Shown: positions 19,792 to 45,745, counted from the stretch's first letter. The stretch is DNA of 64,000 bases from Coriobacteriales bacterium (GCA_031290175.1 JAITOC010000009.1:10285-74284); one strand, 5' to 3'. Notes: generated by a model not told the origin, from the sequence alone. Numbers and translations: made by a program.

Positions 19792-19800
19792 GCGCGTCTC

Positions 19801-22667: not shown

Positions 22668-22705
22668 GCAAACAGGGTCTCGCGACAATTTTTCTTCCCT
22701 TGGGA

Positions 22706-22966: not shown

Positions 22967-22968
22967 AT

Positions 22969-23754: not shown

Positions 23755-23842
23755 TGCTTTCCTCCATTCTGTCCGGAGTCTTAGATCCGGACATCAGTGT
23801 CTCCTGACCTCCCTTTTGAGATCTGGAGAAAATACCAGTGTC

Positions 23843-25174: not shown

Positions 25175-25206
25175 GGTAATATGCTCCTTTCTTTGTCTCT
25201 GGCGTC

Positions 25207-26151: not shown

Positions 26152-26275
26152 TCTCTCCTTTCAAACCTTCATTACATTCCATGTGCATTGCAAAGTAGAC
26201 ATCCCCATACCTCTTCCGGCAAAGCGAACGACCATTCACCTCCTCCTTGATCCTTCTTCGAGACAAACGCAGCTA

Positions 26276-28405: not shown

Positions 28406-28435
28406 CCGTTGGTCCCTTCCCGATGTCCCGCCACC

Positions 28436-29218
28436 CTAATGGGTTGCATAGCTATCGATTTTCTCCTTGATGAAATTGATTTCTTTCTGTATGGCCTCGC
28501 TGGTATCCAAAGCAGATACCTCCCGCTTGTCTGACTCGATCGCATCATCCGTATAGCGTATGAATCCGAGGATATCTTCTCCCCACAACCGCTCCCTCAG
28601 GTAGTCCTCGTCGGCGGTGCTCCGCACCTTGTTCCCGACGATGCTCACCCGGGTGATACCGAGGTCGGCGGCCAACTGCTTGATCTTGTGATAGGTCTGT
28701 ATGCTCCGTGTGCCCGGCTCGACGACAACGATGAAGCGGTCGACCATATCGGCCGTCCCTCGCCCCAGATGCTCGAGGCCAGCTTCCATGTCCATGATGA
28801 CCACATCGTCACGGTTGAGCACCAGGTGCGAGATGATGCGCTTGAGCATCACATGCTCAGGGCACACGCAGCCCCCTCCCCCGCTCTCGACCGTTCCCAT
28901 GAGAAGAAGCTTGACGCCATTCTTAGCGACCGCAAACCGATCGGGTATGTCATCGACCCGAGGGTTTATCTTGAAGAACCTGCCGTAACCCGCACTGTCG
29001 CTGCCCGTCCGCTCATTGATGAGGTCGTTCATCTTCGAGATCGGAGTGATGGCCAGAACCTCTTCCTCGGTGAATCCCAGTGCAAGACCCAGATTGGCAT
29101 CGGGGTCAGCGTCCACAGCCAGGACGGTCCTGCCCTCACGCGCATAGAGCCCTGCCAGTACGGAGGCCAGCGTGGTCTTGCCGACCCCTCCTTTACCTGT
29201 GACTGCTATCTTCAACAT
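28436..29218 (-). CDS. cooC: CooC/AcsF-type nickel-insertion ATPase
   Basis: 260 aa with deviant Walker A GKGGVGKTT and the CxC metal motif (CVC). Confidence 0.9.
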   Translation of the reverse strand: MLKIAVTGKGGVGKTTLASVLAGLYAREGRTVLAVDADPDANLGLALGFTEEEVLAITPISKMNDLINERTGSDSAGYGRFFKINPRVDDIPDRFAVAKNGVKLLLMGTVESGGGGCVCPEHVMLKRIISHLVLNRDDVVIMDMEAGLEHLGRGTADMVDRFIVVVEPGTRSIQTYHKIKQLAADLGITRVSIVGNKVRSTADEDYLRERLWGEDILGFIRYTDDAIESDKREVSALDTSEAIQKEINFIKEKIDSYATH

Positions 29219-29283
29219 ACACCTCCCCGGAAACCTCTCATGTCGACCTCTCTCCTGGCAATGACTTCCTTAAGGCTCATGCG

Positions 29284-31179
29284 CTAGATGCCGAGGAGAT
29301 CACGCTTCTTCTCGATTCCAGCGATTATTGCCTGGACGAGTTCATCCGGGTCGGTATTGATGTTGTAGCCGGCACCGGATATCTTCCGGGTTCCCTCAGT
29401 AATCAGCTGCATCATCTGCTCGCTCCCCTTGACCTGAGGCTCGATTCCCAGATAGGTGTCGATCCCTGTGGCGACGACATAATTCGCGATAGCGACGGCC
29501 TTCTCGCTCATCCACTCGGGCGCACATCCGACGACGGGGATGGAGGTGATGGGGACTTCCCATTGTTCGGCTATATCCGAGGCCAGCAGCATCATGCGGC
29601 TGATATCCACACAGGCTCCCATATGCAGGATTGGAGGGATACCGACAAGCGTGCAGACCCTCTTGAGTCCGTCGCCGCAGACCTCTTTTGCCGCTTTACT
29701 CATAAGGCCCGCCTTTGTGGCCGCCTGCGCCGCGCAACCCGTCGTGATAACGAGGATGTCGTGCTCCAGAAGTCGCCTCATGATCTCGATGTGGGAGTAA
29801 TCAGGACGAACCTTGGGGTTGTTACAACCCACCATGGCGACCGCGCCGCGCAGGACACCCGATTTGATCGCGTCGATAACCGGACGATAGGATCCTCGCT
29901 CTTCGACATGGCTGTTGGTGACTCCATCGAGCTCCTTGATGATCTGCTCATTGGGATAACCGACCGTCGCGTTCTCCTTGCTGGTGGGTATCCAGGCTCT
30001 GCTCTCATCACGATTTGCAAAGTTGTCGATGGCGTCTTTGACAATCTGCTTTGCCTGCTCCAGAGCCGTCTCGGGCACAAACTTGATATACTCGGAGCCG
30101 GGTATCCGGCAGATGGGAGAGGTCGTCACAAACCGGGTATGGAAGCACTCGGTCAAAGGGCCGAGCGAAGGGAAGATGCACTGCACATCGACACACATCA
30201 TATCGACCACACCAGTGAGCACCACATTCTCCTGCTGAAGGAAGTTCCCTACCATGCGTACACCGTGGCGCATGGCAACCTCGTTCGCGGTACAGCAGAG
30301 ACCTACAAGATTGATCCCCTTGATACCCTTGCTCTTGCAGTAACTCTGGAGCTCTGGCAGGTCGGCAACCGTAACCACCATCTCTGAGAAGGCGGGGTCG
30401 TGACCGTGTACGACGATATTGACCATATCCTTTTCCAGCACACCGAGATTACCTTCGGTGTCGCGCGCGGTGGGCGTCCCAAACATGATGTCGGTGAAAT
30501 CGGTGCCGATCATCGATCCGCCCCACCCATCGGCCATGCCAACGCGAAGGCTCTGACGAACCAGCACCTCGGCATCCGCCGTATTGCCCATATGGCTCAT
30601 GTGGAGTGAAGACGATATCTCTCGGTCAATCGCACGTGGCGCTATCTCCTCGCGCTCCCAGAGTTCTTGGCGCTCCTTTGTGGCTCGCTTGAGAAGAACC
30701 TGGGTGCCAAAGGGCTTCCCAAACTCATTGAGGGCGAACAGGGCGACATCATGGGCGACATCATAGACATCGCGATCTTCAAAGGCGATGTCCCATTCCG
30801 TTGCGACCCTCTTGAGCTTTGCCTCATCACGGATGATATAGGGACCTTCGGGCTTTGTTGCAAGGAGGGTGTGTGCTATCTCGCGCGCGTGGTCTGAATG
30901 AGCCGCTGAACCCGCTGCCGCCATGCGGAGGTAGTGCCGCCCCGCGATGGTATGGGCGTCCGCGCCACATATCCCGCGTGGAGCTTTGGCCGTGATGCGG
31001 CAAGGCCCCATGGAGCATATCCTGCAGCAGATGCCTTCCTCGCCGAACTTGCAGTGCGGAGTCTGCTTCTCGTTGCGGTCAGCCCAGGTCTCCGTACACG
31101 CCTCGCAGGCAAGTTCATGCAGTTTTGCGGTATCGGCTTCCATCTGTTCAATGGTGGTGAAGTTCAATTCCGGTTTCAA
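29284..31179 (-). CDS. acsA: anaerobic carbon monoxide dehydrogenase catalytic subunit
   Basis: 631 aa. Has the N-terminal cluster motif CKFGEEGICCRICSMGPCRI and length typical of CooS/AcsA. Confidence 0.95.
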   Translation of the reverse strand: MKPELNFTTIEQMEADTAKLHELACEACTETWADRNEKQTPHCKFGEEGICCRICSMGPCRITAKAPRGICGADAHTIAGRHYLRMAAAGSAAHSDHAREIAHTLLATKPEGPYIIRDEAKLKRVATEWDIAFEDRDVYDVAHDVALFALNEFGKPFGTQVLLKRATKERQELWEREEIAPRAIDREISSSLHMSHMGNTADAEVLVRQSLRVGMADGWGGSMIGTDFTDIMFGTPTARDTEGNLGVLEKDMVNIVVHGHDPAFSEMVVTVADLPELQSYCKSKGIKGINLVGLCCTANEVAMRHGVRMVGNFLQQENVVLTGVVDMMCVDVQCIFPSLGPLTECFHTRFVTTSPICRIPGSEYIKFVPETALEQAKQIVKDAIDNFANRDESRAWIPTSKENATVGYPNEQIIKELDGVTNSHVEERGSYRPVIDAIKSGVLRGAVAMVGCNNPKVRPDYSHIEIMRRLLEHDILVITTGCAAQAATKAGLMSKAAKEVCGDGLKRVCTLVGIPPILHMGACVDISRMMLLASDIAEQWEVPITSIPVVGCAPEWMSEKAVAIANYVVATGIDTYLGIEPQVKGSEQMMQLITEGTRKISGAGYNINTDPDELVQAIIAGIEKKRDLLGI

Positions 31180-31215
31180 GATCTCTCCTTTCCAAATCAG
31201 TCCTCTGTGTGTCGC

Positions 31216-31986
31216 CTAGACGATTATCCGAGACAGAATCTCCTCGAAGGCAATCCGGGCAGATGAATCAACAGGGAGCTGTATGGTTGGCTTCCCCTCA
31301 CAGTCAAAGGCGTAGACCAGGGGGTCTGCCGGGACGATCCCCGCAAAATCGAAGCCCTGGAACTCGATCTCCTCGGCCGTCCCTGGATCCAATACCCCAT
31401 CTGGTGCCCTGTTAACAATGAGCTTCATGGCACTGGGTTTCAATGCAAGCTCGTTGACCAACTCTTGGATGCGCGCAGCCGCCTGTATGCCTCGGCGCGA
31501 ACAGTCGGACACGAGGATGACCATATCGATCGCAGGCAAAGTGCCTCTGCTGATATGCTCCATTCCTGCCTCGTTATCGACAATGAGATAGCGATAGCTG
31601 TCGACGTATTTTCTGATACGCCCCTGTAGCAGATCATTGACGAAGCAGTAGCAGCCCTTACCCTGCGTCCGACCCATGACGATCAGGTCATAGTCGTCTT
31701 CTTCGATAAGGGTTCTGCCAAAGTAGGCATCGAGGTAGTCCTGCTTCGACATTGAAGCAGGAATGGGATCCTCCGTGTCGAAGTCCGCATTCGCGATCTT
31801 CTCGCGGAGGTCACCTAAGGTGTAATCGACCTTGACACCGAGCACCTCGTTGAGGTTGGAGTTCGCATCGGCGTCCACTACGAGCACGGGCTTCTTCCCT
31901 ACCCGTGTGAGATAGTCAACCAGCAGCCCCGTCAATGTTGTTTTGCCGGTTCCACCCTTACCTGCGACGGCGATGATATAGGCCAT
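31216..31986 (-). CDS. cooC: CooC-type nickel-insertion ATPase (second copy)
   Basis: 256 aa with GKGGTGKTT and the CxC motif (CYC). Confidence 0.9.
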   Translation of the reverse strand: MAYIIAVAGKGGTGKTTLTGLLVDYLTRVGKKPVLVVDADANSNLNEVLGVKVDYTLGDLREKIANADFDTEDPIPASMSKQDYLDAYFGRTLIEEDDYDLIVMGRTQGKGCYCFVNDLLQGRIRKYVDSYRYLIVDNEAGMEHISRGTLPAIDMVILVSDCSRRGIQAAARIQELVNELALKPSAMKLIVNRAPDGVLDPGTAEEIEFQGFDFAGIVPADPLVYAFDCEGKPTIQLPVDSSARIAFEEILSRIIV

Positions 31987-31988
31987 AG

Positions 31989-32789
31989 TCAGTTCTGTCC
32001 AAAAAGGCCCTCACGGAATGCCTCAAGATAGTTCATGCAGTATTCATCGTTGCCGAGAAGCGCATCGACGGCGTGCATGGTCGCCTGCATGTCGGCAGAC
32101 ATCGGATCCATGATGGCACTGTCCATCCCGGCGGCCATCGCAAGCGCGAGGAACTGGGTGTTGAGCGCCTTGCGATAGGGCATACCGAAGGATATGTTGC
32201 TCAGACCGGAGGTGATGTGCACGTCCGGGAATGCTGCCTTTATCAAACGAACTGCCTGGTTGAATCCCACCAGTGAGTCACCCTTGGTAGCAAGGGTCGT
32301 AACCAGAGGATCGATGAGCAGGTTATCGTGGGGAATCCCATTCTGATCCGCGAGTGCGACGATCTTTTTTGCGATCTCGAACTTGACCTGTGGATCCTCC
32401 GGTATTCCGTTGTCATCGCAGGTAAGAGCGACAACCTTCCAGTTGGTGCCAGCAATAGCGGGAAGGACGATCTCGCATTTGCCTGATTCGAGCGAGATGG
32501 AATTGATGAGACCCTCTTTGTTGGCCCGTGGAATCATGTCGACTATGACCTGGGGGTCTGAGCTGTCGATACACAGAGGGGTGTCGACGGTACCCTGAAC
32601 AAGATCGATGAGCCACTCCATGGTTTCGTGCTCGATGGCGGGCTCCACGCCGGCGCAGACGTCGATGTACGAAGCTCTGCCTGCAGCCTGTTTGGTCGCG
32701 AGCTCCTTGATGTACTTCTCGTCGTGCGCCTTGATGGCCTCAAGCGTCTTGGGGATGAACCCGTTTATCTTCTCGCCGATGATTATCAT
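31989..32789 (-). CDS. pterin-binding methyltetrahydrofolate:corrinoid methyltransferase paralog (candidate MT2)
   Basis: Begins MIIIGEKINGF and contains SGLSNISFGMPYR and LAMAAGMDSAI. ATG 32789 is preceded by GAAGGAGGA; the track start is 32834. It is the first gene of the acs cluster. Confidence 0.85.
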   Translation of the reverse strand: MIIIGEKINGFIPKTLEAIKAHDEKYIKELATKQAAGRASYIDVCAGVEPAIEHETMEWLIDLVQGTVDTPLCIDSSDPQVIVDMIPRANKEGLINSISLESGKCEIVLPAIAGTNWKVVALTCDDNGIPEDPQVKFEIAKKIVALADQNGIPHDNLLIDPLVTTLATKGDSLVGFNQAVRLIKAAFPDVHITSGLSNISFGMPYRKALNTQFLALAMAAGMDSAIMDPMSADMQATMHAVDALLGNDEYCMNYLEAFREGLFGQN

Positions 32790-33042
32790 GTGATCCTCCT
32801 TCATAGTCCCGCTCGGTCTTCTGGTCAGCGTCAAAGGGGGATACCCTATGGCTGCACTATCAGACTAGGGGTTGAAAATATTCACAGCAATCCGTTTGAT
32901 TGATGGAGAGATGATGCGTGTTTTCCTACACAATGCCGGAAAGGTTCAGGCGGGTCGGGAGCATAGAGGGAATCTATAATGGAGCTTGTTCGGATGGACG
33001 CAGGAATCATGCAACCGGGGGAGCCTTGAAAGGAGAACCATC

Positions 33043-33363
33043 ATGCACACTGAATCAGGACACACTTCACATCCACACGAGCATTCGCACGCACATATCC
33101 ATGAGCATTCACATGAGCACCCCTGTGATAACCTGCACACCCATCAGCATCCCGTGGGACAGAATGAGACCAGCGCGCTGCTGGGATATCTCATCGAGCA
33201 CAACACGCAGCACACCGACGAGCTGCTCACCCTTGCCGGCGATGCACAACAGAACGGATTGGTCGAGGTAGCAAAACGCATCGAAGCCGGTGCGACGCTC
33301 TACCGATCAGGCACCGAGGAGCTGGTCAAAGCACACGCACTCCTAAGAAAGGCGACAGTATAA
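33043..33363 (+). CDS. histidine-rich putative Ni/Co-binding protein (CooJ-like role inferred)
   Basis: 106 aa from ATG 33043, preceded by AAAGGAGAA. The N-terminal 40 residues are about 40 percent His (HPHEHSHAHIHEHSHEH), followed by a helical C-terminal domain. TAATG overlap with cooT. Confidence 0.6.
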   Translation: MHTESGHTSHPHEHSHAHIHEHSHEHPCDNLHTHQHPVGQNETSALLGYLIEHNTQHTDELLTLAGDAQQNGLVEVAKRIEAGATLYRSGTEELVKAHALLRKATV

Positions 33364-33557
33364 TGTGCCTCTCAACAGTACGCTACGCAACTGACAGCGA
33401 GTCGGACGCCCCTATCGCCAGCAACGTCACCTCTGTCGTTGTCAACGGCAGCAGGATAATGCTTACCGACCTTATGGGAAGCGAAATTGAGGTTGTTGGG
33501 GCAATCGTGCGGGTTGATCTCATAAAGAACCATATCATCATCGCGACCGCTGCTTGA
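33363..33557 (+). CDS. cooT: CooT family nickel-binding CODH maturation protein
   Basis: 64 aa. Starts MC (conserved Cys2) and shows the CooT-like pattern ...IMLTDLMGSEIEVVGAIVRVDLIKNHIII. Confidence 0.78.
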   Translation: MCLSTVRYATDSESDAPIASNVTSVVVNGSRIMLTDLMGSEIEVVGAIVRVDLIKNHIIIATAA

Positions 33558-33569: not shown

Positions 33570-35072
33570 TCACTCGTTCTTGAGCAGCTCGAATGACAGA
33601 AGCACGTACCACTGAGAATCGAAGTTCGTCATGTCGATGCCACATATCTTCTGGATACGCTCAAGCCGATAAGAAAGCGTGGTGCGATGGATGAAGAGCT
33701 CACGTGCCGTATGTGCCAGATTGAGATGGTTTTTCAGGTAGACATACAGCGTATTGTACAGCTCGGCATGATGCTCCCTGTCGTATGCTCTCAGGGCAAG
33801 CAGTTCCGGGGAACAGACCAAGGTCGCAGGTAGTGCCGTAGTGCAACTTTTAAGCAGGAGTGGCTTCACGATCCTATCGAAATGGAACAGTTCTCTATAG
33901 GGAAACGCCTGGGGGCCGAGCTCGAGCGCCAGGTCTGCTTGAGCACCATACTGACGCAGGTCGTCTAACCCGGAGAAGATGTTGCTCATCCCTGCTTTCA
34001 TGAAATTATCCCGCAGATACAGCGTCAATATCCGCTCAAACTCATCCCTGCTCCCCCGATACAGATCCAGATTGATGATAGCAACGATGCTTTCTCCGAG
34101 CTCGAACACGCCAGTCTCCGCAAGCATGCTCGCGATACGTTCGCGGATGAACCTGAGGGTTCGATCTCGATGCACCCTGATGTCGATGTGGAACCTCAGG
34201 GACACATAATGGTGCTGCGGCAACCACCCATAACCTTCGAGCTTCCTGACGATAGATTCCGTCTTCGTGAGGGAGCCCTCCATGATGAGTTTCAGGGTGT
34301 CCGCCAGACCGGGTTCCGCCGGGGTATACTCCGGCACGAAACCGATGGCCAGATGGGTGATCTCCGCAAGGTACTCCAACAAGACGGCGTCAGAGGATTT
34401 CAGAGCCTGCTTGAACTCAATCAGGATGAGGCGATACTTGAGCATGTCCTGTTGCACGATATTGACGCAGAACCCACGCTTCTCCTGTATGAGCAAGGGC
34501 AGGACATGGATACTCCCTGCCAGAGCTGAACTTGTGTCCATGGCAGAGCGCATCAGATAGGGCAACCGCATGCTGTTGAGAAGGGGCACCAGGTCAGGAT
34601 CTACCCCGATGTCATTCGAGAAGGCGACGGCCTTGAAGTTGACATCGTGAAGAAGCAGGGGGTTGCCGAACAGTTCGGTGCTCACATCGATCATCGCCTG
34701 CACATCCGATCCACTGCTGAGCATGGAATGTATACGTGCCTCCCAGAGATCATAGCGCGCAAAGATGTCCTGGAGGCCGTTGTGAACCTTGAACAGCGTA
34801 GCGCCGCTGTTGATGACAACGGCAGCATCGAAGTGCTCCAGGAGCTCCTCCGGAGCCGTACCGACGATGAGGATGAGCGATGAGACGGTGTTGGGAGGCA
34901 GAGGAATGTCGGAGGCGTCCTCGACAAGGTAGACCTGATCATCCATCCACGTTGTCCCCGGCTCGACGAAGAGGATGCGATGGATGACTGGCTTGCTGTC
35001 AGGCGTGCCGATAACGGTGCAATCAAAGGCCTCTTTCAGCCCCTCGGATATCATTTCAGCACTGATCTTCAT
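33570..35072 (-). CDS. PucR family transcriptional regulator
   Basis: 500 aa with the C-terminal PucR HTH ARELFIHRTTLSYRLERIQKICGIDM. ATGA overlap with the upstream DUF3786 gene. Confidence 0.85.
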   Translation of the reverse strand: MKISAEMISEGLKEAFDCTVIGTPDSKPVIHRILFVEPGTTWMDDQVYLVEDASDIPLPPNTVSSLILIVGTAPEELLEHFDAAVVINSGATLFKVHNGLQDIFARYDLWEARIHSMLSSGSDVQAMIDVSTELFGNPLLLHDVNFKAVAFSNDIGVDPDLVPLLNSMRLPYLMRSAMDTSSALAGSIHVLPLLIQEKRGFCVNIVQQDMLKYRLILIEFKQALKSSDAVLLEYLAEITHLAIGFVPEYTPAEPGLADTLKLIMEGSLTKTESIVRKLEGYGWLPQHHYVSLRFHIDIRVHRDRTLRFIRERIASMLAETGVFELGESIVAIINLDLYRGSRDEFERILTLYLRDNFMKAGMSNIFSGLDDLRQYGAQADLALELGPQAFPYRELFHFDRIVKPLLLKSCTTALPATLVCSPELLALRAYDREHHAELYNTLYVYLKNHLNLAHTARELFIHRTTLSYRLERIQKICGIDMTNFDSQWYVLLSFELLKNE

Positions 35073-35725
35073 CGTCTGCTGCCATTCCGTATGGCTATGA
35101 GATGGTTGATACTGATATCACCTATGACCGCAAGATCCTCCGCTGAGAACGCGGAGCGGAAGTTCTCGTCAAAGAGCACCTGGACTGACGGGGGGAACTC
35201 ATCATCTGCTGCCCATATCAGGATGCTCATGGGAAAACCGGAAAGGAACTCGAAGCAATACCCCACATCAGCATGAGCGACGCGTCTGGCATTGAGCTGT
35301 GATGCCCGCTCCATGACCTGCCCCAGGGATTCCGGATCACGACCGAACTCCCGCAGCAGTCTCCCAATGACGCGTCCCTGGAAATTGCTGGCATAGGTCT
35401 GTGCCCGGGGGAACTCCCGGTACGCCAACTCCCTGCCGGTCGGTTCCGTAAAGCACCCTTCGATGAGGAATCGCAGGATAAGGATACGTTCATAGGCTCG
35501 AGCTTCGGTGAGCTCTTCTTCTCTGACCATCGAGAAGTGTGGCCAGGATACCCGGTACCCCTGCCCCATGAGCGTCAGGCGGAACACCGCCGCGCCCTGC
35601 TCATATTCCAGCCCTGTGCGCAGGGCGATAACAGAGGGATCCATGCCCTCATAGAGAGCAGTGTAATGCTCAAGGGCTCGTGCGGTCAGCTGGTCATCCT
35701 GTGGGGACGGAGCCGTTTTTGCCAT
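35069..35725 (-). CDS. DUF3786 domain-containing protein
   Basis: 218 aa from ATG 35725, 11 nt after the RACo stop codon. The track ORF extends to 35974, but that part overlaps the RACo 3' end. It is a paralog of 45068-45745. The family name is from memory. Confidence 0.6.
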   Translation of the reverse strand: MAKTAPSPQDDQLTARALEHYTALYEGMDPSVIALRTGLEYEQGAAVFRLTLMGQGYRVSWPHFSMVREEELTEARAYERILILRFLIEGCFTEPTGRELAYREFPRAQTYASNFQGRVIGRLLREFGRDPESLGQVMERASQLNARRVAHADVGYCFEFLSGFPMSILIWAADDEFPPSVQVLFDENFRSAFSAEDLAVIGDISINHLIAIRNGSRR

Positions 35726-35738
35726 TCTCGCTACACTT

Positions 35739-37673
35739 TCATCTGGAAAAGAGCGATGCATCGGTATGGGGCAGGAAGCAGGCCGCGACGAATTCATCCA
35801 TATAGGACGGCATGGAGCTGAGCTCGACGTAGGTGATGTTATTCGCCAGAGCACACAGCTCGTCGTATGCCTCAGATGCCGAAAGAATCGCGTAGGAACC
35901 CGCCAGGGACGTATTCCCGATATAGGAATAACCCTCCCTTGGAATATTGGGCAGCATTCCAACTCCCACTGCATGCTCGATATCGATGGCGCTCCCTATG
36001 CCGCCCGCGATGTAGATGTGCTCGATGACGCTCATATCCATGTCCGCAATGGCAAGAATCGTGCGGATGGCCGAGAAGACCGAGCCTTTTGCGCGTATGA
36101 AGTTTTCGATATCCGCGTCATTCAGCGCCACCTCCTTGGCACCATCTGCCTCCTCAGCGGTTGCGATGATATAGGAGGTGCTTCCCCATTCGTCTTTTCG
36201 TATCCGATCCCCCTCCCGCTGAAACCGCCCTCGGGCATCTATGATCCCCGTCCGATAGAGTTCACCGATGGCGTCGATCAGACCCGAGCCGCAGACGCCC
36301 CTGGGCTTCTGATCGGGCTCCCCTATCACCTTGTAGCAGGGGTTCATCGTTGCGTCGTCAATCTCAAGCGCTTCGATAGCTCCATCGGTCGCCCGCATGC
36401 CGCAACTGATATCGCCTCCCTCAAAAGCAGGACCGGCGCTGCACGCACAGGCCATCAGGAAGTCAGAATTGCCGAAGACTATCTCACCGTTGGTTCCGAG
36501 GTCAATCAACATGGAAAAGGAGTCGCTGCGGCCGATCATGGAGGCAAGGACGCCCGCCGTTATGTCGCCCCCCACATAACTACCGACGGCGGGAGCAAGA
36601 AGCACGCGGGCATCAGGGTTTACCTCAGCCATCAACTCGGAGCCCCGGAGCCCCTCCAGGGAGAAGAATGCGGGAACGTAGGGCTCCAGCCGCAAATGGT
36701 TGCCGTAGACCCCCGTGAAGAGATGGATCATCGTGGTATTGCCCGCTACGGCGACACGCACGATGGAGGAAGCGCGGCGATTGATGCTTTCGACCAGGGA
36801 TCTCACCAATGGCTGCAGGCACTCTGTGACGATCGCCTCGCGCAAGCGCTCCAGACCGCCTGCGCGAGTGGACTCGATAAGGCGATTGATGACATCGGCA
36901 CCGAAGCGTATCTGCCCGTTGCCCGCCGACCCCGAGGCCAGTATCTGTCCGGTACTGAGGTCGGTCAGCAAGGCCGATACCGTCGTCGTACCGATATCGA
37001 TCGCCAGCCCCAGAGGAGCCTCGTTCTTGGATGAGACATCAAGGATGGTCAGGTTCCCGTTCGATTCCGTCTGGATAGTTGCCACAACGGTAAAGTCTGT
37101 CTCGCGGAGCGCGTGTGGCAAGACGCGAAGCGCACCGATTCCGACGCTTATCCTCTCCTCGGATACCCCAGTGCTTCCCGCCAGGGCGTGTAGCAGGCGC
37201 TCCTGATCCGCCTGGGCATCATCAAGCGTGGGAACCGAAAGGCTGACCTCACGCAACTCATACCCCTCAACAAGGGTGTGTCCAAGGCGAGCCAGTATCC
37301 CAGTAATGGCCGTGCGTGCGGCCTCCTCACGTGGGTTATCACTGCTGGAGACTCGTATTCCGCTCTGATATGCGGAGGCCTCAACGGGAACCTCAACCTC
37401 GATATCCCCGCGCAGGGTGCTGACGCATGCCAAGACCCATCCTTGGGCTGATTCCGCATCGTTTATGTGGCGGTTCTTGGGACTTTCCACCTCGCCGCGA
37501 ACCACGCGCACGCGACACTTCCCACAGGTCATATTCCCTGCACAGGGAGCGTCGATGGGCACGTTCGCATGCTTTGCGCTATCCAGCAGACTTGTGCCAA
37601 CGGCTGTTGATGCAACAATCTTCCGACCATCAGCAAGAGCGAAATTGACCCTGACAGCATCCATGTGAACCAA
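35739..37673 (-). CDS. reductive activator of corrinoid proteins (RACo; [2Fe-2S] plus ASKHA/DUF4445 ATPase, COG3894)
   Basis: 644 aa. Has the N-terminal plant-type ferredoxin motif CAGNMTCGKCRV and an ASKHA region GLAIDIGTTTV...DLGTNGEI. Alternative ATG at 37664. Confidence 0.85.
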   Translation of the reverse strand: MVHMDAVRVNFALADGRKIVASTAVGTSLLDSAKHANVPIDAPCAGNMTCGKCRVRVVRGEVESPKNRHINDAESAQGWVLACVSTLRGDIEVEVPVEASAYQSGIRVSSSDNPREEAARTAITGILARLGHTLVEGYELREVSLSVPTLDDAQADQERLLHALAGSTGVSEERISVGIGALRVLPHALRETDFTVVATIQTESNGNLTILDVSSKNEAPLGLAIDIGTTTVSALLTDLSTGQILASGSAGNGQIRFGADVINRLIESTRAGGLERLREAIVTECLQPLVRSLVESINRRASSIVRVAVAGNTTMIHLFTGVYGNHLRLEPYVPAFFSLEGLRGSELMAEVNPDARVLLAPAVGSYVGGDITAGVLASMIGRSDSFSMLIDLGTNGEIVFGNSDFLMACACSAGPAFEGGDISCGMRATDGAIEALEIDDATMNPCYKVIGEPDQKPRGVCGSGLIDAIGELYRTGIIDARGRFQREGDRIRKDEWGSTSYIIATAEEADGAKEVALNDADIENFIRAKGSVFSAIRTILAIADMDMSVIEHIYIAGGIGSAIDIEHAVGVGMLPNIPREGYSYIGNTSLAGSYAILSASEAYDELCALANNITYVELSSMPSYMDEFVAACFLPHTDASLFSR

Positions 37674-37760
37674 CGTTCTACTCTATTTTCCCTGTGGGTA
37701 TAGTTTATGTTCTGTAGAGCGTTTATTTCTTGTGATAAATCACCCAGCTTTTGTAATTTC

Positions 37761-38993
37761 CTATCGAATCGAATTACGATAGCGATTCGGGGAGGTTTTG
37801 GCATAGCGCATAAACACTTTGGTGAAGTAGCTTTGATCCGAGTATCCGGTGAGGGTGCTCACGTCTGCCAGGCTAATCGATGAGTCGTGGAGGAAGTCCT
37901 TGCTCCTCTCGATACGGAAGCGATTGAGGTAGTCACGAAACGAATACCCAGTCTCCTCTTTGAAGAGCCGACTGAGATACTGCGGTGCGATATAGATGTG
38001 CGCCGCCGCGTCTTCGATGGTCATTCTCTTCGAATAATTCACCTGAATGTAATTAATGGCCTCACGAACAAGGTCGGAGCGTTTCGAATAGGGATTCTTG
38101 ATGACATATCCCGAATAGAGACTGAGGAACCCATTGAGCCACAGGATTATGTCTTGAAGGTTATCGAGGGCATCTACCTGTGGCAAAAGCTCTTTCTTCT
38201 GATCTTTGATGTATTCTTCCTGAGCACCATCGCGGATCATAGCGGCAGTCAGGTAGGTCATAATCTCTACGATCTGTTTGCGGATTGCGTCAAGATTCTT
38301 TCCGGGATGGAACAACATCATATCGACAATATCTCTCAACAGTATCTGAGCCGCGTTCGTATTGATGGAGGCAAGCAGCTGAGTCAGCTTCTGCACCTCA
38401 TCCAACATCCTTCGCCCATTGTCCTGTTCGGTCTCATTGAAGAACGAGTTAACATAATCGGAAAGCTGTTTGTTGGGCGAGAAGCTCTCATCGATACTCT
38501 CGAAATATTCGGGGCGCGTACCGTCACTGACATACTCGGCATTGATATGCAGTTGCTCAGAAAGCGCAAGGAGACTGGTGGCGTCGCGCACAGGAATGGT
38601 AGACAATTCCTCGAGCAGGCCGTGATAATCGCCTGTCGGTATCTTTGGCAGGAGTTCATACTCAAAATAATCCTCGATCGAACTCATCAGGATAGGCCCG
38701 CCAAAAACAGACAGGTACTTCTTGGCTTCTCGATATACCGGGGAGACGAAAAAGAAAAAACCCCTCGGGTCGGCGAAGATATAGCGTCCTCTGAACCTCA
38801 GGGTCTCATAACTTGCCTTGATAATGGATGCCTGACAGCGCTCTCTCACGTCAAGGAGTTCGGAAACCGAATCAAGAACTCCGGCAATCTGTGTATAGTG
38901 CTCTGTTTGGTACACAAGCTTGCCATTATCATCAAGTATGAACACGCCAATCTTGGACACGAAAGAAAAATCATTCATCGTCTCAAATTGCAT
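37761..38993 (-). CDS. AraC family transcriptional regulator with an uncharacterised N-terminal sensor domain
   Basis: C-terminal AraC HTH (LADVSTLTGYSDQSYFTKVFMRYAKTSPNRYR). The gene is visibly AT-richer than its neighbours. I chose ATG 38993; the track start GTG is at 39005. Confidence 0.85.
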   Translation of the reverse strand: MQFETMNDFSFVSKIGVFILDDNGKLVYQTEHYTQIAGVLDSVSELLDVRERCQASIIKASYETLRFRGRYIFADPRGFFFFVSPVYREAKKYLSVFGGPILMSSIEDYFEYELLPKIPTGDYHGLLEELSTIPVRDATSLLALSEQLHINAEYVSDGTRPEYFESIDESFSPNKQLSDYVNSFFNETEQDNGRRMLDEVQKLTQLLASINTNAAQILLRDIVDMMLFHPGKNLDAIRKQIVEIMTYLTAAMIRDGAQEEYIKDQKKELLPQVDALDNLQDIILWLNGFLSLYSGYVIKNPYSKRSDLVREAINYIQVNYSKRMTIEDAAAHIYIAPQYLSRLFKEETGYSFRDYLNRFRIERSKDFLHDSSISLADVSTLTGYSDQSYFTKVFMRYAKTSPNRYRNSIR

Positions 38994-39097
38994 GGACAAC
39001 CCCACTATAACGATATAAAGAAAACATAGTTACACCCTCAACTCTGTGAATAAGGTTATTGTACCATGGCTTCGAAAGTGCGCTACAGCTCGTTGTG

Positions 39098-39658
39098 TTA
39101 TCCGTGGATCAATGAAAGAACCTCATGCCGCGAACGAATGGAGGTCTCGAAGGCGCCCCGCACTGCCGAGGTCGTCGTCGTGGTTCCCGGTTTCTTGACT
39201 CCCCGCATCGACATACAGAGATGCTCCGCCTCGATGACGACGATGACAGCATCCGCCTCAAGCTGCTCCATCAGGGTGTCCGCTATCTGGGATACCATGC
39301 GCTCCTGCACCTGGAGCCTTCGGGCATAGGCCTCCAAAAGCCGAGCCAGCTTGGATAGCCCACAGACATGACCCCGTCTGCCGGGGATGTAGCCGATATG
39401 CGCGACGCCAAAGAAGGGCACCAAGTGGTGTTCACACAGCGAATAAAAAGGCATATCTTTGACGAGGACGATCTCGTGATGATGCTCATCGAATACCTTC
39501 TGCAGTATCGATGCGGGATCCTGTTCGTTACCCGCGAGCACCTCCTTGTACATCCGCGCCACCCGTGCCGGTGTCTCACGCAGCCCTTCGCGCAAGACAT
39601 CCTCCCCTACTCCTTCAAGGATGAGACGGACGCCTTGCTCTATCTTGGTCAGATCCAT
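39098..39658 (-). CDS. folE: GTP cyclohydrolase I (type IA, Zn-dependent)
   Basis: Closely resembles Bacillus FolE as I recall it. Contains [18 protein letters not shown] and [15 protein letters not shown] chose ATG 39658; TTG 39670 is also possible. Confidence 0.93.
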
Positions 39659-39670
39659 AGGAAACCTCAA

Positions 39671-40297
39671 CTATCTCGTTATCGATGGGACAGGAGAAGC
39701 CAGCAGCATCTTCCATACCGCTGGTTCGATGGTGCACGTGGCAGCCATCTCGATGATCGCAACCCCGGGCTGTAACTCCCCGAGCGTTCGGACGATCTGT
39801 TGTTTCGTGCCTTCGTCGACGAGGTCGATCTTATTCAACAGGATTGTGGTTGCCCCTTCAAGCTGTCGTCGTATCATCCTATCATTAAAAGCAATCAGCT
39901 TGATGAAACGACTGGCATCAACGACCACAAGAGAACTGACGGAAGCATCAAGACCTCTGCATGAGCGTATTTCGGCTTCGATCTCGGACGGTATGGCAAG
40001 ACCGGTCGCTTCGATGATGAGCCATTCGGGGTCGTACAACTCCCGAATCTCTTGTATCGTCAAACTGAGATCGTCTGCCAGGTTGCAGCAGATGCAACCT
40101 GCAATCAGCTCCCGCACCTCCAAACCCCCTGCCCGCAAGGTGGCTCCATCAATGCTCACAGAACCGATCTCGTTCTCGATGATGACGACCGCGGTGCCCG
40201 TATCACGACGCGATACATCCTTGAGATACATGGCAAACGGAAGCAGCAGGCTTGTCTTCCCCGAGCCGAGGAATCCGCTCAAGAGCACTATCCTCAT
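39671..40297 (-). CDS. short COG0523 (CobW/HypB/UreG-superfamily) GTPase metallochaperone lacking the CobW C-terminal domain
   Basis: About 208 aa from ATG 40297, preceded by GGAAGGAGGGA. Has Walker A GFLGSGKTS and the CxCC motif GCICCNL. It ends directly before folE. Confidence 0.8.
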   Translation of the reverse strand: MRIVLLSGFLGSGKTSLLLPFAMYLKDVSRRDTGTAVVIIENEIGSVSIDGATLRAGGLEVRELIAGCICCNLADDLSLTIQEIRELYDPEWLIIEATGLAIPSEIEAEIRSCRGLDASVSSLVVVDASRFIKLIAFNDRMIRRQLEGATTILLNKIDLVDEGTKQQIVRTLGELQPGVAIIEMAATCTIEPAVWKMLLASPVPSITR

Positions 40298-40559
40298 CAC
40301 AGTCCCTCCTTCCCTAGTGCGCGGCGTCCCGCAGAAACAAGACCTATCCGTCATCTGTTAGCATGATACTTCCCTCGAAGCCCTGAACTTTGGTGAAGAC
40401 CTACACAGTTCTTGTACTTTTCCTACCTATGCCGTCAAATCGATTCCTGAACCCATGATCCATTGTCTATACTTAGCAGCAAATCCCTTTGATGCTAGAC
40501 AGGGTGCATATACTCCGTACCGCATATGACATCTTCGAAGACAACAACAGGAGGTAGCG

Positions 40560-42074
40560 ATGACCGCCCGGCGACCAATAGTAACATTCACTGATGAACA
40601 GAAGCGTGTTGAGGCAGATGTGGGTGACAACCTGCTCGACCTCATCCTCGAGCAAGGCATCGCCATCAAAGCTGATTGCGGCGGCGTGGGCACCTGTGGC
40701 AAGTGCCGCGTGCTCGTCGATGGCGAGGTACAACATGCCTGCCTCACCCGGGTTGTCCGCGACACCGAGGTGCTCGTGGTCGATGTGGATGCTGCCGATG
40801 GCTATGCGATCCTGACGGAGTTCAGAGAGGATGGTACGGGGAAGGTCGATCTGTCCGGTGCCACAAGCCCGGCAGGATCGGATCTCGCAGTCGCCATCGA
40901 TATCGGCACGACGACGATAGTCGGCAAGCTCCTTGACCGTTCAAGCGGGATCGAATTGGCATCCTTTGCCCAGCTGAACTCCGAGCTACCCTACGGTGCC
41001 GATGTCATCTCGCGTATCAAGGTCTGTCTCGAGGATGCATCCACGCTCTCCTCCCTTATCACCGAGCAGATCGACACCGCAATCTCAGAAATGCTTGCAA
41101 GCAGTCAGGTCGACCGCAGCTCGATCTCACGCGTGGTTCTGGCAGGCAACACGACGATGGTCTATATCCTGCTGAACCTGCCCTGTCAATCGCTTGGCTT
41201 CTCTCCCTTCATCCCCGAGATTCCCGTTGACCTGACTTATCCCTATACTCGGATATTCCATACCGACACGCTCACCTGCGATTGCACCATCATCCCTTTC
41301 ATCTCCGGCTACGTAGGAGGAGATATCACAGCTGGTCTGCTTTCCTTGGCCTCAGAGGACGATTTTATCCTTATGGACATGGGCACCAACGGAGAGCTCG
41401 TGTTTAAGCGGGGAGATCACCTCATCTGCACCGCGACTGCAGCAGGGCCTGCATTCGAGGGCGGCAATATCGAATGCGGATCAGGAAGTGTCCGGGGTGC
41501 CATCTCAAAGGCTTGGTTCGAGGATGGGAAGATTACCTTCAAGACGATTGGTGGGGAGCGACCAGTGGGCATCTGCGGCTCCGGCATCCTCGACCTGGGC
41601 GCTCTGCTCGTCAGGGAGCGGTTCATAGATGAGACCGGCTATCTCGACGATGACCTCGGCAGCGACCGCATCGTCCTGACAGACAAGCCCGACAGCAACC
41701 CTGAGGTCTATTTTTCACAGAAGGATGTACGCCAGTTCCAGCTCGCAAAGAGCGCGACCCGCACAGGTCTTGAGATTATCATCGATGAGATGGGCGGTGC
41801 CCTGCCCTCGAAGGTCTTCCTCGCCGGAGGCTTCGGACAGAACCTCGATCCGGCCAGCGCCATTGCGACAGGCATGCTCCCCGAGAGCTTTGCGGGGCGC
41901 GTATCCCCTATCGGCAACAGCTCCCTCAACGGTGCTATAAAGGCGTGCTTAAATGACGCACTGGTCAGCACCGCCGCAGGTTCCATCGAGCACGCAGTCG
42001 AGATAAACCTCGGATCACATCCGAAGTTCAACGACCTGTTTATGGATCAGATGGCATTCCCAACGGAGTCATGA
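40560..42074 (+). CDS. second, shorter RACo-type corrinoid reductive activator ([2Fe-2S] plus ASKHA)
   Basis: 504 aa. Contains CGGVGTCGKCRV, and ASKHA motifs AVAIDIGTTTIV and DMGTNGELV. RBS AGGAGG upstream. Confidence 0.85.
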   Translation: MTARRPIVTFTDEQKRVEADVGDNLLDLILEQGIAIKADCGGVGTCGKCRVLVDGEVQHACLTRVVRDTEVLVVDVDAADGYAILTEFREDGTGKVDLSGATSPAGSDLAVAIDIGTTTIVGKLLDRSSGIELASFAQLNSELPYGADVISRIKVCLEDASTLSSLITEQIDTAISEMLASSQVDRSSISRVVLAGNTTMVYILLNLPCQSLGFSPFIPEIPVDLTYPYTRIFHTDTLTCDCTIIPFISGYVGGDITAGLLSLASEDDFILMDMGTNGELVFKRGDHLICTATAAGPAFEGGNIECGSGSVRGAISKAWFEDGKITFKTIGGERPVGICGSGILDLGALLVRERFIDETGYLDDDLGSDRIVLTDKPDSNPEVYFSQKDVRQFQLAKSATRTGLEIIIDEMGGALPSKVFLAGGFGQNLDPASAIATGMLPESFAGRVSPIGNSSLNGAIKACLNDALVSTAAGSIEHAVEINLGSHPKFNDLFMDQMAFPTES

Positions 42075-42133
42075 GGTGAGCTCAGACTCGTCACTCCAGT
42101 ACGATACACTTAAGCCCCGAAGAAAGGAAAGCC

Positions 42134-42697
42134 GTGCTAGCAGAGGAAACCAAGGTTGAGACCGCACTGGAAACGCTGAAAGTGTTTCTGTGGCATGAGA
42201 TGACCTCGTTCGACCCGCGCATCCTCAGCTTCACCCAGGAGATACGCTCCATATGTGAGAGCAATGGCTGCGGGCGCTACAACAAGGTCTGGAACTGCCC
42301 ACCCGCTGTAGGCTCACTTAAGGAGCTGGAAAAGAGCCTTCGTGTCTACCGGGAAGCCATTCTCTTCACTGAGTTGTCATGGCTCGAGAGTCCCTTTGAC
42401 TGGGATGCCATGGTCTTGGGTGGCAAGAGTTTTGACAAGCGGCTTGCACTTGCCAATAACCATCTGAAGCAGGCATTCGACGGAACCGACACCGCGTTTA
42501 AGCTCTTTGGCTCAGGGATGTGCCAATCATGTGACTCATGCACCTATCCCGATGCGCCCTGCAGGTATCCCGACCTGCTGTTCACACCAATTGAAGCCTG
42601 TGGGATCAATGTGGTTGAACTCTCCCAAAAAGTGGGCATCGCATACAACAATGGCGAGAACACCGTAACTTGGTTTGGCATGATTCTCATCGCATAG
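42134..42697 (+). CDS. DUF2284 predicted metal-binding protein
   Basis: 187 aa with the Cys patterns CESNGCGRYNKVWNCPP and CQSCDSCTYPDAPCRYP, which I recall as typical of DUF2284. GTG start. Confidence 0.72.
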   Translation: MLAEETKVETALETLKVFLWHEMTSFDPRILSFTQEIRSICESNGCGRYNKVWNCPPAVGSLKELEKSLRVYREAILFTELSWLESPFDWDAMVLGGKSFDKRLALANNHLKQAFDGTDTAFKLFGSGMCQSCDSCTYPDAPCRYPDLLFTPIEACGINVVELSQKVGIAYNNGENTVTWFGMILIA

Positions 42698-44223: not shown

Positions 44224-44856
44224 CTACGAAACAAGTTCCTTGGCAACGTCTACGGCGGAAGACGAATCGGTCGAATACGCATCCGCGCCTATCTTCCTTG
44301 AGAAATCGAGCGATATCGGTGTTCCACCGATCATGACCTTGACCTTGTCGCGCAGACCTGCTGCCTTGAGTGCCTCGATGACGACGCCCTGCTGCTCCAT
44401 GGTGGTCGTGAGCATAGCAGACATGGCGATGATGTCAGCATTGCGCTCCTTGGCGGTCTCGACGAACTTCTCAGGTGCAACATCGATGCCCAGATCGATG
44501 ACCACGAAGCCTGCACCTTCCAGCATCATCTTGACGAGGTTCTTGCCGATGTCGTGCAAGTCACCCTTAACTGTACCGATAACGACGGTACCGATCTCCT
44601 TGACACCATCTGCCACGAGAAGCGGCTTGATGAGCGCCGTGCCCGCTGCAAGAGCCTTGGCAGCCATGAGCACCTCGGGTACGAAGATCTCATTGTTCTT
44701 GAACTTCCCGCCAATGATATCCATTCCTGCCAACAGACCGTCATTCAGGATCTTCTCGGCCTTCACGCCGTCGTCAATGGCCTGTTGCGCGAGCTGCTCA
44801 ACATCCTTGACCTTGCCCCTCTGTACCGCAGTTGAAAGATCGTCGAAAATAGACAT
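44224..44856 (-). CDS. mtaC: methanol-type corrinoid protein
   Basis: 210 aa with the B12-binding DxHxxG motif (GDLHDIGK). It lies directly upstream of mtaB, with RBS GAAGGAGGAA. Confidence 0.88.
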   Translation of the reverse strand: MSIFDDLSTAVQRGKVKDVEQLAQQAIDDGVKAEKILNDGLLAGMDIIGGKFKNNEIFVPEVLMAAKALAAGTALIKPLLVADGVKEIGTVVIGTVKGDLHDIGKNLVKMMLEGAGFVVIDLGIDVAPEKFVETAKERNADIIAMSAMLTTTMEQQGVVIEALKAAGLRDKVKVMIGGTPISLDFSRKIGADAYSTDSSSAVDVAKELVS

Positions 44857-44916
44857 ACCGTTCCTCCTTCTCGTAAACCAAACCTACTGCAACCATTGCC
44901 TTAAGCATCGATGTAC

Positions 44917-44937
44917 GACAGAGCCGACGGTTCTGTC
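44917..44937. promoter_or_regulatory. 21-bp near-perfect palindrome upstream of mtaC (candidate operator)
   Basis: GACAGAGCCG-A-CGGTTCTGTC, with 9 of 10 arm positions symmetric. It lies 61-81 nt upstream of the mtaC start, in the divergent region shared with the DUF3786 gene. Confidence 0.35.
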
Positions 44938-45067
44938 ACGTGAATCTTGCCTACGACATCTCTGCTCCTTACGTGCAGTCTAAACAGACTGAGTTTTAAA
45001 GTATTGTGACAAACGAACCTGATTTTGCACTTTTCCGCCCTTTGCGCAAGGTTCAGTAACGGGGTCT

Positions 45068-45745
45068 TTGCAAATCAACTACAATCTTCCTGTGAAAACT
45101 CTTATGAAAAATGGTTACGAACAAACCTATGAACTTCTGGTGCCCCGTCTGGCAACCCATGATTTTGCCTTGGCGGCGCTCCATCTTGGTCTTGCCCCAC
45201 CTGTAGAAGACAGCCTTGAGGTAACCTTCCTCCGTCGTCGCTATCGGGTCGATCACCAGGGCGTCTTTGAGGCCGACGGGGAGCCCCCCTCGCATATCAA
45301 TTGCAGGAGTGTCCTTATCTACTATGTTACCTGGGGCGGCAAGGGAGAGCCGTATCAGCGTTATCAGCAGCTCCACCAGTTCTCAGGGGGCATCTTCACT
45401 GGGGGCGGCTCCAAGGAACGGGGTGCCGACTGGATGTTGTCTCCGCTGACGGAGCAGTTCAATGGAAAGCCTGAGCTCTTTGAGGCTACGATGGAGGTCA
45501 TGGGTGCCAAAAGGTGTCCTGCGAGTGCGAGTGGGGTCACGACTTGGCATTACCTGGTTCTCCCCAAGATGCCCATTGAGATACGCTATTACGAAAAAGA
45601 TGATGAGTTTGACTGCGAGGTGCACATCCTGTTCGATCAGACCGCGACGCAGTTCACTCCCTTTGAGACGCTCTGCGTACTTCACGGGTGCCTGGTTAGC
45701 GAGATCGTCCAAGTGGGGCGAGAGACACAGAAAAGCGAGTGCTGA
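45068..45745 (+). CDS. DUF3786 domain-containing protein (second copy)
   Basis: 225 aa from TTG 45068 (alternative ATG 45104). It is a paralog of 35069-35725 and is divergent from mtaCB. Confidence 0.6.
   Translation: MQINYNLPVKTLMKNGYEQTYELLVPRLATHDFALAALHLGLAPPVEDSLEVTFLRRRYRVDHQGVFEADGEPPSHINCRSVLIYYVTWGGKGEPYQRYQQLHQFSGGIFTGGGSKERGADWMLSPLTEQFNGKPELFEATMEVMGAKRCPASASGVTTWHYLVLPKMPIEIRYYEKDDEFDCEVHILFDQTATQFTPFETLCVLHGCLVSEIVQVGRETQKSEC

Follow-up and report, generated by a model that had tools for sequence, protein, structure and literature searches.

We analysed a 64,000-nt stretch of DNA from a Coriobacteriales bacterium (GCA_031290175.1, JAITOC010000009.1:10285-74284), called the window here, whose Pfam matches describe an island of Wood-Ljungdahl and methanol-utilisation genes. 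The Wood-Ljungdahl pathway is a major anaerobic route of CO2 fixation and the basis of gas-fermentation biotechnology. Our subject is a set of three consecutive minus-strand genes near the carbon monoxide dehydrogenase/acetyl-CoA synthase (CODH/ACS) genes of this island, the acs operon. They encode the corrinoid activator RACo, a protein of the DUF3786 family and a PucR-family regulator (Table 1). Junction coordinates were obtained by direct reading of the minus strand.

Table 1. Features of the three-gene unit and of its surroundings, in window coordinates
Feature	Position	Strand	Remarks
RACo	35739..37673	-	644 aa from TTG 37673, or 641 aa from ATG 37664
RACo-DUF3786 spacer, 13 nt	35726..35738	-	AAGTGTAGCGAGA; no Shine-Dalgarno-like sequence (duplex scan)
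DUF3786 protein, 218 aa	35069..35725	-	PF12654 at 1e-45
ATGA overlap, DUF3786 stop and regulator start	35069..35072	-	sequence read
PucR-family regulator, 500 aa	33570..35072	-	HTH_30 at the C-terminus, GAF-like sensor modules
Predicted operator	32924..32940	-	TCCGGCATTGTGTAGGA; divergent acsE / DUF8180-cooT promoter region
acs promoter-like stretch	32862..32895	-	ACGGATTGC -35-like, weak -10 TAGTCT; alignment only
Second DUF3786 paralogue	45104..45745	+	PF12654 at 9e-33, 113.6 bits; divergent from mtaC-mtaB
cooT (CODH nickel chaperone)	33363..33557	+	PF10133 at 8e-15; convergent with the regulator, 12 nt between stop codons
His-rich small protein	32986..33363	+	probable start ATG 33043; homologous to DUF8180-annotated proteins
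acsE-like pterin-binding methyltransferase, first acs gene	31989..32789	-	Pfam; strong Shine-Dalgarno sequence at ATG 32789
AraC/PocR regulator	37761..39005	-	Pfam; 88-97 nt before RACo
mtaC	44224-44856	-	second DUF3786 divergent on its other side

The RACo stop codon TGA occupies positions 35741-35739 and the DUF3786 start codon ATG positions 35725-35723, a junction of +13 nt with no overlap, while the DUF3786 stop codon TGA (35071-35069) shares the tetranucleotide ATGA with the regulator start codon ATG (35072-35070), a junction of -4 nt. A first-pass annotation of this DNA had given the RACo stop at 35739, the DUF3786 start at 35725 and the overlap of DUF3786 stop and PucR start as an ATGA at 35069-35072, and the strand reads exactly so. 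The start of RACo is ambiguous between the two codons of Table 1, and that of the regulator is backed by residues M1, I3 and S4, which are invariant in 16 orthologues. None of the three genes has a Shine-Dalgarno sequence. Their best duplexes were of -3 to -5 kcal/mol in the duplex scan (-3.5 kcal/mol for DUF3786 and -4.1 kcal/mol for the regulator), while mtaB, mtaC, acsE, the CODH gene, acsC, acsD and others of the same window reached -10 to -14 kcal/mol. A simple signal scan found no terminator-like site on the minus strand from 33570 to 37673, which is a weak negative, and the Rfam scan gave neither a riboswitch nor any other RNA family within the three-gene unit or close to it.

The three genes lie on the same strand, their junctions are of about 15 nt or less or overlap, and the downstream genes have no ribosome-binding site, which is the pattern of a coupled operon; RACo, DUF3786 and the regulator look like one transcription unit. 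That they are translationally coupled, as the first-pass annotation had proposed, is plausible from the +13 and -4 nt junctions, the missing Shine-Dalgarno sequences and the lack of an internal terminator-like site. Since the regulator has no ribosome-binding site of its own, its translation would re-initiate at the ATGA overlap. The same annotation went further and held that DUF3786 is stoichiometrically tied to RACo and that the regulator is made in step with the reactivation machinery; coupling does not imply either of these, and the exact junctions vary between genomes. The 4-nt ATGA-type overlap is by itself not unusual in this window, the open reading frame list of which holds at least four others (8486-8489, 11735-11738, 53691-53694 and 59990-59993). 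What goes beyond chance, when loci are compared, is that the gene order is kept in other genomes.

The RACo translation matched the Pfam families Fer2 (3e-11, residues 15-87), RACo_linker (1e-11), Raco_middle (3e-46) and RACo_C_ter (6e-94), so that every part of the architecture that was looked for was found: the ferredoxin domain, the linker, the middle domain and the C-terminal ASKHA ATPase domain. It also shows the [2Fe-2S] cysteine motif C-x5-C-x2-C (PCAGNMTCGKC) and a later LAC. The mechanism of the family is an ATP-triggered electron transfer from the RACo [2Fe-2S] cluster to an inactive Co(II) corrinoid (PMC4934906). This RACo is predicted to carry out the ATP-dependent reduction of a Co(II) corrinoid protein, and its genomic position beside acsC and acsD supports the prediction. 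It shares its four-domain architecture and its location beside CoFeSP/ACS genes with the RACo of Carboxydothermus hydrogenoformans, the activator of the corrinoid protein CoFeSP that has been characterised in its biochemistry and structure. That system is described as one of two partners, RACo and CoFeSP (PMC4934906).

We then scanned a collection holding one genome per species, which gave 564 confirmed DUF3786 relatives, and examined the closest 80 with 10-kb flanks, using the window proteins as tblastn queries against these 80 loci. The closest match to the first DUF3786 in the collection was only 46% identical, so that the species representatives do not include this organism. In 76 of the 80 loci, a co-directional RACo orthologue (47-60% identity) directly preceded DUF3786; over about 86 loci in which a RACo gene adjoins DUF3786, the window RACo was likewise 47-60% identical to its counterparts (tblastn), and the gap between the two genes (86 loci) had a median of 16 nt and extremes of -17 and +241 nt. 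The RACo-linked loci came from Treponema (including T. primitia), many Lachnospiraceae, Oscillospiraceae, Christensenellaceae, Family XIII, Coriobacteriaceae and Coriobacteriales. The pair thus spans Spirochaetota, Bacillota and Actinomycetota, and most pairs are located in or beside acs clusters. The gene that follows DUF3786 is variable and encodes MTHFR, a FolC-like ligase, FTHFS, FchA, an ECF S-component or a URO-D-type methyltransferase.

By this comparison, RACo-DUF3786 is an old and widespread gene pair, and a role of the RACo-linked DUF3786 subfamily as functional partner of the corrinoid activator is well supported by synteny. Because the link to RACo holds across phyla and in 76 of the 80 loci, a role in the corrinoid-activation system is reasonable for this subfamily. 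The association of DUF3786 with corrinoid activation genes, as claimed by the first-pass annotation, holds for the close subfamily and fails for several distant members, which occur in contexts without such genes.

A similar arrangement can be found in the literature on acetogens. Cluster III of Acetobacterium woodii has the order cooC1-acsV-orf1-orf2-acsD, where acsV is the RACo gene and orf1 (647 bp, 215 aa) is separated from it by 15 nt and shares 4 nt with orf2 (PMC6925170, PMC3315566). In Eubacterium limosum, cooC1, acsV and the gene of a hypothetical protein (ELIM_c1649) form one operon according to mapping of transcription start sites by differential RNA sequencing (PMC5651825). In both organisms, as in the window, a RACo-type activator gene is followed on the same strand by that of a hypothetical protein of about 215 aa, and the 15-nt gap followed by a 4-nt overlap in A. 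woodii is the same junction pattern as that of the window. By size, by position and by the 76 of 80 loci, acsV-orf1 of the acetogens is likely the RACo-DUF3786 pair. The third gene differs, being that of a 500-aa PucR-type regulator in the window and the 219-aa orf2 in A. woodii, and in the window, unlike in the acsV-orf1 segments of the acetogens, a convergent cooT/DUF8180 pair stands between the unit and the acs operon. The three-gene architecture is thus a variant of the known acsV-orf1 arrangement and no new kind of system.

A comparable case concerns another activator of this family. In Phaeobacter inhibens, a RamA-like activator (Fer2 + DUF4445) and a DUF1638 protein are needed for reactivation of the B12 of methionine synthase, and the two are linked by cofitness and by phyletic co-occurrence (PMC5764234). 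MecG and MecH of the dichloromethane (mec) cassette have been read in the same way (bioRxiv 10.1101/2021.08.30.458270). Both pairs resemble RACo-DUF3786 in that a RACo-family activator is tied, genetically and phyletically, to a small uncharacterised protein. The partner in Phaeobacter belongs to another Pfam family, DUF1638 instead of DUF3786, and the corrinoid client is also different.

The DUF3786 protein matched PF12654 with 155.9 bits, against a cut-off of 27, over profile positions 1-175 of 176. This family counts 3,636 cluster representatives at 50% identity, and nearly all of the 150 members listed in our search are stand-alone proteins of about 205-220 aa. In the family alignment one Asp is invariant, a W-x-G-D-D-E-F-P-P-S loop is nearly so, and Arg, Tyr and acidic residues are conserved. 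It contains no conserved Cys or His, and a metal cluster or a redox role is therefore unlikely. The AlphaFold2 model is alpha/beta with a pLDDT of 94.3 and a pTM of 0.90. Foldseek gave no match to the PDB at E <= 0.001 (TM-score at most 0.25, best E 0.09), and the search of PDB sequences with the DUF3786 profile gave nothing below E 0.5. The weak and non-significant Foldseek neighbours were ligand-binding folds (Bet v 1/PYL, IclR and GAF), which is only a hint, and we assign no function from the fold. A literature search on DUF3786 and PF12654 found nothing relevant.

Two of the proteins found by the DUF3786 profile search are fusions: P0103 (763 aa) combines a LacI HTH, a periplasmic-binding domain and two DUF3786 domains, and P0104 (320 aa) combines DUF3786 with an ACT domain. 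They may point to a ligand-sensing role, or may be artefacts of gene calling. A fusion of DUF3786 to the CdhE-type Fe-S domain PF04060 was also looked for in the longer proteins among the top 150 representatives, and none was found.

The window encodes a second DUF3786 protein, which the first-pass annotation had reported as divergent from mtaCB; the gene is real and divergent from mtaC (Table 1). It is 19% identical to the first, and its start at 45104 agrees with a 100%-identical database protein of 213 aa from a Coriobacteriales metagenome-assembled genome (MAG). Its closest other relative (50%) stands at the end of a cluster for a molybdopterin oxidoreductase, a 4Fe-4S protein and a TorD-like chaperone, away from corrinoid genes (L099:2962-7554).

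The regulator matched HTH_30 at 1e-16 (60.6 bits, cut-off 27) and GGDEF_2 with 24.1 bits, just below the cut-off of 24.5. At E <= 0.001 there was no match to PF07905, the N-terminal domain of PucR, and residues 1-270 matched no Pfam family. Its model has a pLDDT of 81.6. Foldseek matched about 250 residues of this model to the C-terminal fragment of Rv2242 (9f80, 2e-8) and to BAD_0249 (3onq), with E values from 2e-8 to 5e-8, and the regulator profile matched Rv2242 and BAD_0249 over the same residues as HTH_30. The N-terminal part of the model resembles the GAF-type sensor folds of CodY and phytochromes (Foldseek). PucR of Bacillus subtilis, Rv2242 of Mycobacterium tuberculosis and BAD_0249 of Bifidobacterium share with the regulator the C-terminal HTH_30 and, given the borderline GGDEF_2 score, probably a GGDEF_2/GAF-like module. 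Unlike the usual domain layout of the PucR family, the window regulator has no detectable PF07905, and its model shows GAF-like alpha/beta modules in that place. PucR is known for its part in purine catabolism; neither the proposed acs target nor the predicted TACA-N3-TGTA operator is known for it.

Context look-ups and a metagenome scan provided 15 informative non-redundant regulator loci, the window included. The orthologues (37-50% identity) are few and come mostly from termite-gut metagenomes and MAGs of Coriobacteriales, Clostridiales and Family XIII. PucR homologues of 24-28% identity, which adjoin MFS/URO-D or ADH genes, carry sequences of only loose similarity and were not used as evidence. 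DUF3786 was located directly upstream of the regulator in 12 of the 15 loci, with spacings, where given, of -4, -4, -4, -1, +2, +2, +20, +20, +27, +44 and +243 nt; the 4-nt overlap of the window recurs in L096 and L101. The genes upstream of RACo differ by locus (acetyltransferase, mtaC, methylamine methyltransferases or AraC). Downstream of the regulator, a convergent cooT was found in 11 of 12 informative loci, usually followed by DUF8180 and the acs operon. Only one of the 80 closest DUF3786 loci has the regulator. These comparisons indicate that the trio is a real conserved block within the regulator clade, in which the exact overlap is not conserved, and that the regulator is a clade-specific addition to the RACo-DUF3786 pair. 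The steadier neighbour of the regulator, across the same loci, is the convergent cooT/DUF8180 pair, followed by the acs operon.

One of these loci (L101:129-4184) has the trio with 4-nt overlaps at both junctions and, upstream, Dimeth_Pyl (dimethylamine) and MTTB (trimethylamine) genes. Each of the latter two is split into two calls, as one would expect if an in-frame UAG is read as pyrrolysine.

For the regulator-containing loci, we aligned the stretch that separates DUF8180/cooT from the first acs gene (alignment A3). The results showed a conserved palindrome, TCC-TACA-N3-TGTA-GGA, in the acs promoter region. In the relatives, the TTG of a -35-like GTCGGATTGC lies 47 nt downstream of the palindrome start and is followed by TATAAT, and the invariant promoter columns of A3 are CG.ATTG and TA..AT. 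A second TACA-N3-TGTA is located exactly 75 nt from the first, over the -10/+1 region, in most relatives (L082, L084, L087, L090, L091 and L094). The strict 11-mer occurred 0.067 times per kb in the regulator loci and 0.006 times per kb in the other 81 loci. At a threshold of 16, a weight matrix found, in 1.36 Mb of fetched loci, only these promoters and two sites from outside the training set. One of the two (Murimonas intestini, L042) reads TCGTACAATGTGTAGGA and lies 56 nt upstream of the gene for a PucR paralogue (29% identity), which diverges from an mtaC operon. The other (Treponema sp. MAG, L039:4010-4100) reads TTCTACAAAATGCAGGA, then GCCGGATTGC, then TTATCAT, which is the same type of acs promoter, and stands upstream of an apparently LarC-like gene (judged by eye from its N-terminus) followed by cooC-ACS-RACo-DUF3786.

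Apart from the predicted operator (Table 1), no site of the window matches the consensus with 3 mismatches or fewer (0.05 such matches are expected, and 5 shuffles out of 100 gave one). The operator is also the best weight-matrix site on either strand, and it sits at the orthologous position in A3 with the same spacing to GGATTGC. The TTG of ACGGATTGC is found 47 nt from the palindrome start, as in the relatives. The sigma-70 scan made no call at the aligned acs promoter, a weak negative from a simple scan. Within the window, the palindrome was found neither upstream of RACo (37674-37760) nor in the cobW/RACo2 (40355-40559) and mtaC/DUF3786b (44857-45067) intergenic regions, and six loci showed no conserved motif upstream of RACo. 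Autoregulation and the cobW/RACo2 and mtaC/DUF3786b targets were rejected, as no palindrome lies upstream of RACo or in these intergenic regions. Among the target regions named by the first-pass annotation, 32790-33042 does hold the conserved palindrome, while 40355-40559 and 44857-45067 hold none; a regulator that senses the status of the pathway, as it suggested, and does so across several corrinoid promoters is not supported. DUF8180 was also considered as the binder of the palindrome and is less likely, as it looks like a His-rich CooJ-like metallochaperone beside cooT. The conserved site and its position suggest that the regulator probably binds the palindrome and controls the acs and cooT promoters.

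The surroundings of the unit are those of a C1 island. The acs operon has the order acsE-like, cooC, CODH, cooC, ACS, acsD, acsC and a second acsE-like gene. It belongs to a complete cluster with hydrogenase genes (17266-32834, minus strand) that contains two pterin-binding methyltransferase genes (31989-32789 and 22969-23754), and an Ech/Coo-type membrane [NiFe] hydrogenase module (17266-22619) stands directly after the acs cluster and is followed by a corrinoid protein. This Wood-Ljungdahl gene set is carried by a MAG of Coriobacteriales (Actinomycetota), the closest relatives of which are from termite-gut samples. The DUF8180-like/cooT pair (32986-33557) converges on the 3' end of the regulator and diverges from the acs operon; it recurs in L081, L082, L084, L086, L090, L091 and L094, and DUF8180 was undetected in L087. 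The His-rich protein of this pair had no Pfam match in the library copy used, was 33-43% identical to PF26551-carrying open reading frames of L081 and L084 (tblastn) and has a strong Shine-Dalgarno sequence at 33043; it may be a nickel-handling analogue of CooJ.

Upstream of RACo, on the same strand, lie genes for a cobW-like GTPase, for folE (GTP cyclohydrolase I) and, directly before RACo, for the AraC/PocR regulator (37761-40354). In another Coriobacteriales locus (L081), folE and AraC/PocR stand upstream of mtaB-mtaC-RACo-DUF3786-regulator, an arrangement which suggests that AraC/PocR belongs to the methanol module; its gene is probably outside the three-gene unit. On the plus strand, a second and shorter RACo-type activator, RACo2 (504 aa, no linker domain), and a DUF2284 gene (40560-42697) converge on mtaC-mtaB, and L074 has the same RACo2-DUF2284 pair. 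Every corrinoid module of the window thus comes with an activator and a small DUF protein to itself. The only Rfam match in the window is a cobalamin riboswitch (RF00174, 15028-15145, minus strand, 35.7 bits), located upstream of a DUF4430 gene (14363-14926) and of ECF/ABC transporter genes (11055-14352), which probably form a corrinoid-uptake operon.

We consider it probable that the three genes are an accessory operon of the nearby CODH/ACS cluster, made of the old RACo-DUF3786 pair and a clade-specific regulator, which would probably act on acs. In the mechanism that we propose, RACo (acsV) would pass an electron from its [2Fe-2S] cluster to the Co(II) corrinoid, using ATP, and DUF3786, most likely free of redox cofactors, would aid the reactivation or the hand-over to the corrinoid protein. 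It might do so as an adaptor, as a release or exchange factor, or as a binder of a small ligand or of the corrinoid. The PucR-type regulator with its GAF-like sensors would have been appended in one clade and be translated by re-initiation at the ATGA. It would bind the TCC-TACA-N3-TGTA-GGA palindrome or palindromes between cooT/DUF8180 and the acs operon, and would control the acs structural and nickel-chaperone genes and not its own operon. Gene order, junctions, the conservation of that order and the conserved palindrome are observed; that the genes are co-transcribed and coupled, that DUF3786 acts as a partner of RACo and that the regulator pairs with the operator is what we infer.

Several observations weigh against this reading. 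Three of the 15 regulator loci have no RACo-DUF3786 upstream (L084, with its duplicates L085 and L088, L090 and L095), which makes an internal promoter possible in the window as well. A divergent MFS gene lies upstream in L084, where the regulator must therefore have its own promoter. Two of the three keep cooT-acs downstream, while the contig of the third ends inside the regulator gene, so that the link of the regulator to the acs operon is no looser than that to the reactivation genes. Another locus (L100) keeps the trio and has shikimate genes instead of acs genes downstream, and the exact overlaps vary among orthologous loci. Four of the 80 closest DUF3786 loci have no adjacent RACo (L017, L033, L059 and L080), although two of them are still in a C1 context. 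Distant DUF3786 members stand beside unrelated genes (molybdopterin oxidoreductase/TorD, DsbA/pyridine-nucleotide oxidoreductase and YicC/YitT). Corrinoid-activation neighbours are missing in L080, L099 and L107, L105 has DUF3786 in a Wood-Ljungdahl context without RACo, and a distant member of Anaerolineae is found with MTHFR and cooC; given the non-corrinoid contexts, PF12654 in its full breadth is not confined to corrinoid systems. The CoFeSP-RACo chemistry runs in vitro on RACo alone (PMC4934906), and DUF3786 is therefore not obligatory for the core reaction. The operator of the window is degenerate, with a weight-matrix score of 10 when the training sites score 16.7-26, and a second site at +75 nt is not recognisable in the window. 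Besides the regulator, cooT and DUF8180 also accompany the palindrome, and in L039 the palindrome is present with no PucR gene within 12.7 kb, where the operator may be older than its linkage to the regulator or may be served in trans. For these last two reasons the assignment of the regulator to the operator is circumstantial.

Among the other explanations, one that we regard as unlikely is that the regulator is made in fixed proportion to the reactivation machinery and senses the status of the pathway, with DUF3786 at the interface of corrinoid protein and activator, and with acs, cobW/RACo2 and mtaC/DUF3786b as its targets. It agrees with the tight junctions lacking Shine-Dalgarno sequences, with the retention of the trio in 12 of 15 loci, among them L100, which has no acs genes downstream, with the RACo and DUF3786 that each corrinoid module of the window has to itself, and with the PucR paralogue beside mtaC in L042. 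Coupling does not set stoichiometry, however, and a fixed proportion fits poorly with a junction that ranges from -4 to +243 nt and with the regulators of L084, L090 and L095, which stand without the upstream pair; nor is the palindrome found in 37674-37760, 40355-40559 or 44857-45067. Still less probable in our view is that DUF3786 is a sensory or co-regulatory ligand-binding module that reports to transcription factors and takes no part in reactivation chemistry. The P0103 and P0104 fusions, the ligand-binding folds among the weak, non-significant Foldseek neighbours, the lack of redox-cofactor ligands and the direct translational coupling to the regulator in this clade all speak for it. But 75 of the 76 RACo-linked loci have no adjoining regulator and continue with a pathway gene instead (MTHFR, FolC-like, FTHFS, FchA or ECF S-component), the fusions are only two among 150 listed proteins and possibly gene-calling artefacts, and the Foldseek neighbours are far from significant (best E 0.09, TM-score at most 0.25).

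A lack of any functional link, in which genome compaction has packed the genes together and the palindrome is bound by a regulator encoded elsewhere, seems to us the most improbable of these explanations. The frequency of 4-nt overlaps in the window, the same promoter type in L039, where no PucR gene is close by, and the ability of RACo to work without DUF3786 in vitro (PMC4934906) would be accounted for. However, a RACo-DUF3786 adjacency of 95% across three phyla is far beyond drift, the trio is retained despite differing upstream genes, and the same core palindrome, TACA-N3-TGTA, occurs beside an independent PucR paralogue (L042). We keep the reading of an accessory operon, and only tentatively go beyond it to suggest that DUF3786, a fold without a solved relative, is wired in the termite-gut clade to a GAF-containing PucR-type regulator that would switch acs through a two-site TACA-N3-TGTA operator.

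If neither the partner role of DUF3786 nor the pairing of regulator and operator holds, the locus is an ordinary compact operon. As it stands, it offers two leads: DUF3786 as a candidate for a third component in the reactivation of corrinoids, and the PucR-type protein, together with its operator, as a candidate regulator of acs. The latter would be, to our knowledge, one of few dedicated transcription regulators proposed for acs genes, and it provides a testable regulator-operator pair for one clade of gut acetogens, with a 17-nt site and a 75-nt two-site geometry. DUF3786, as the near-constant partner of RACo in three phyla and with a confidently modelled fold that has no solved relative, is a well-defined target for biochemistry.

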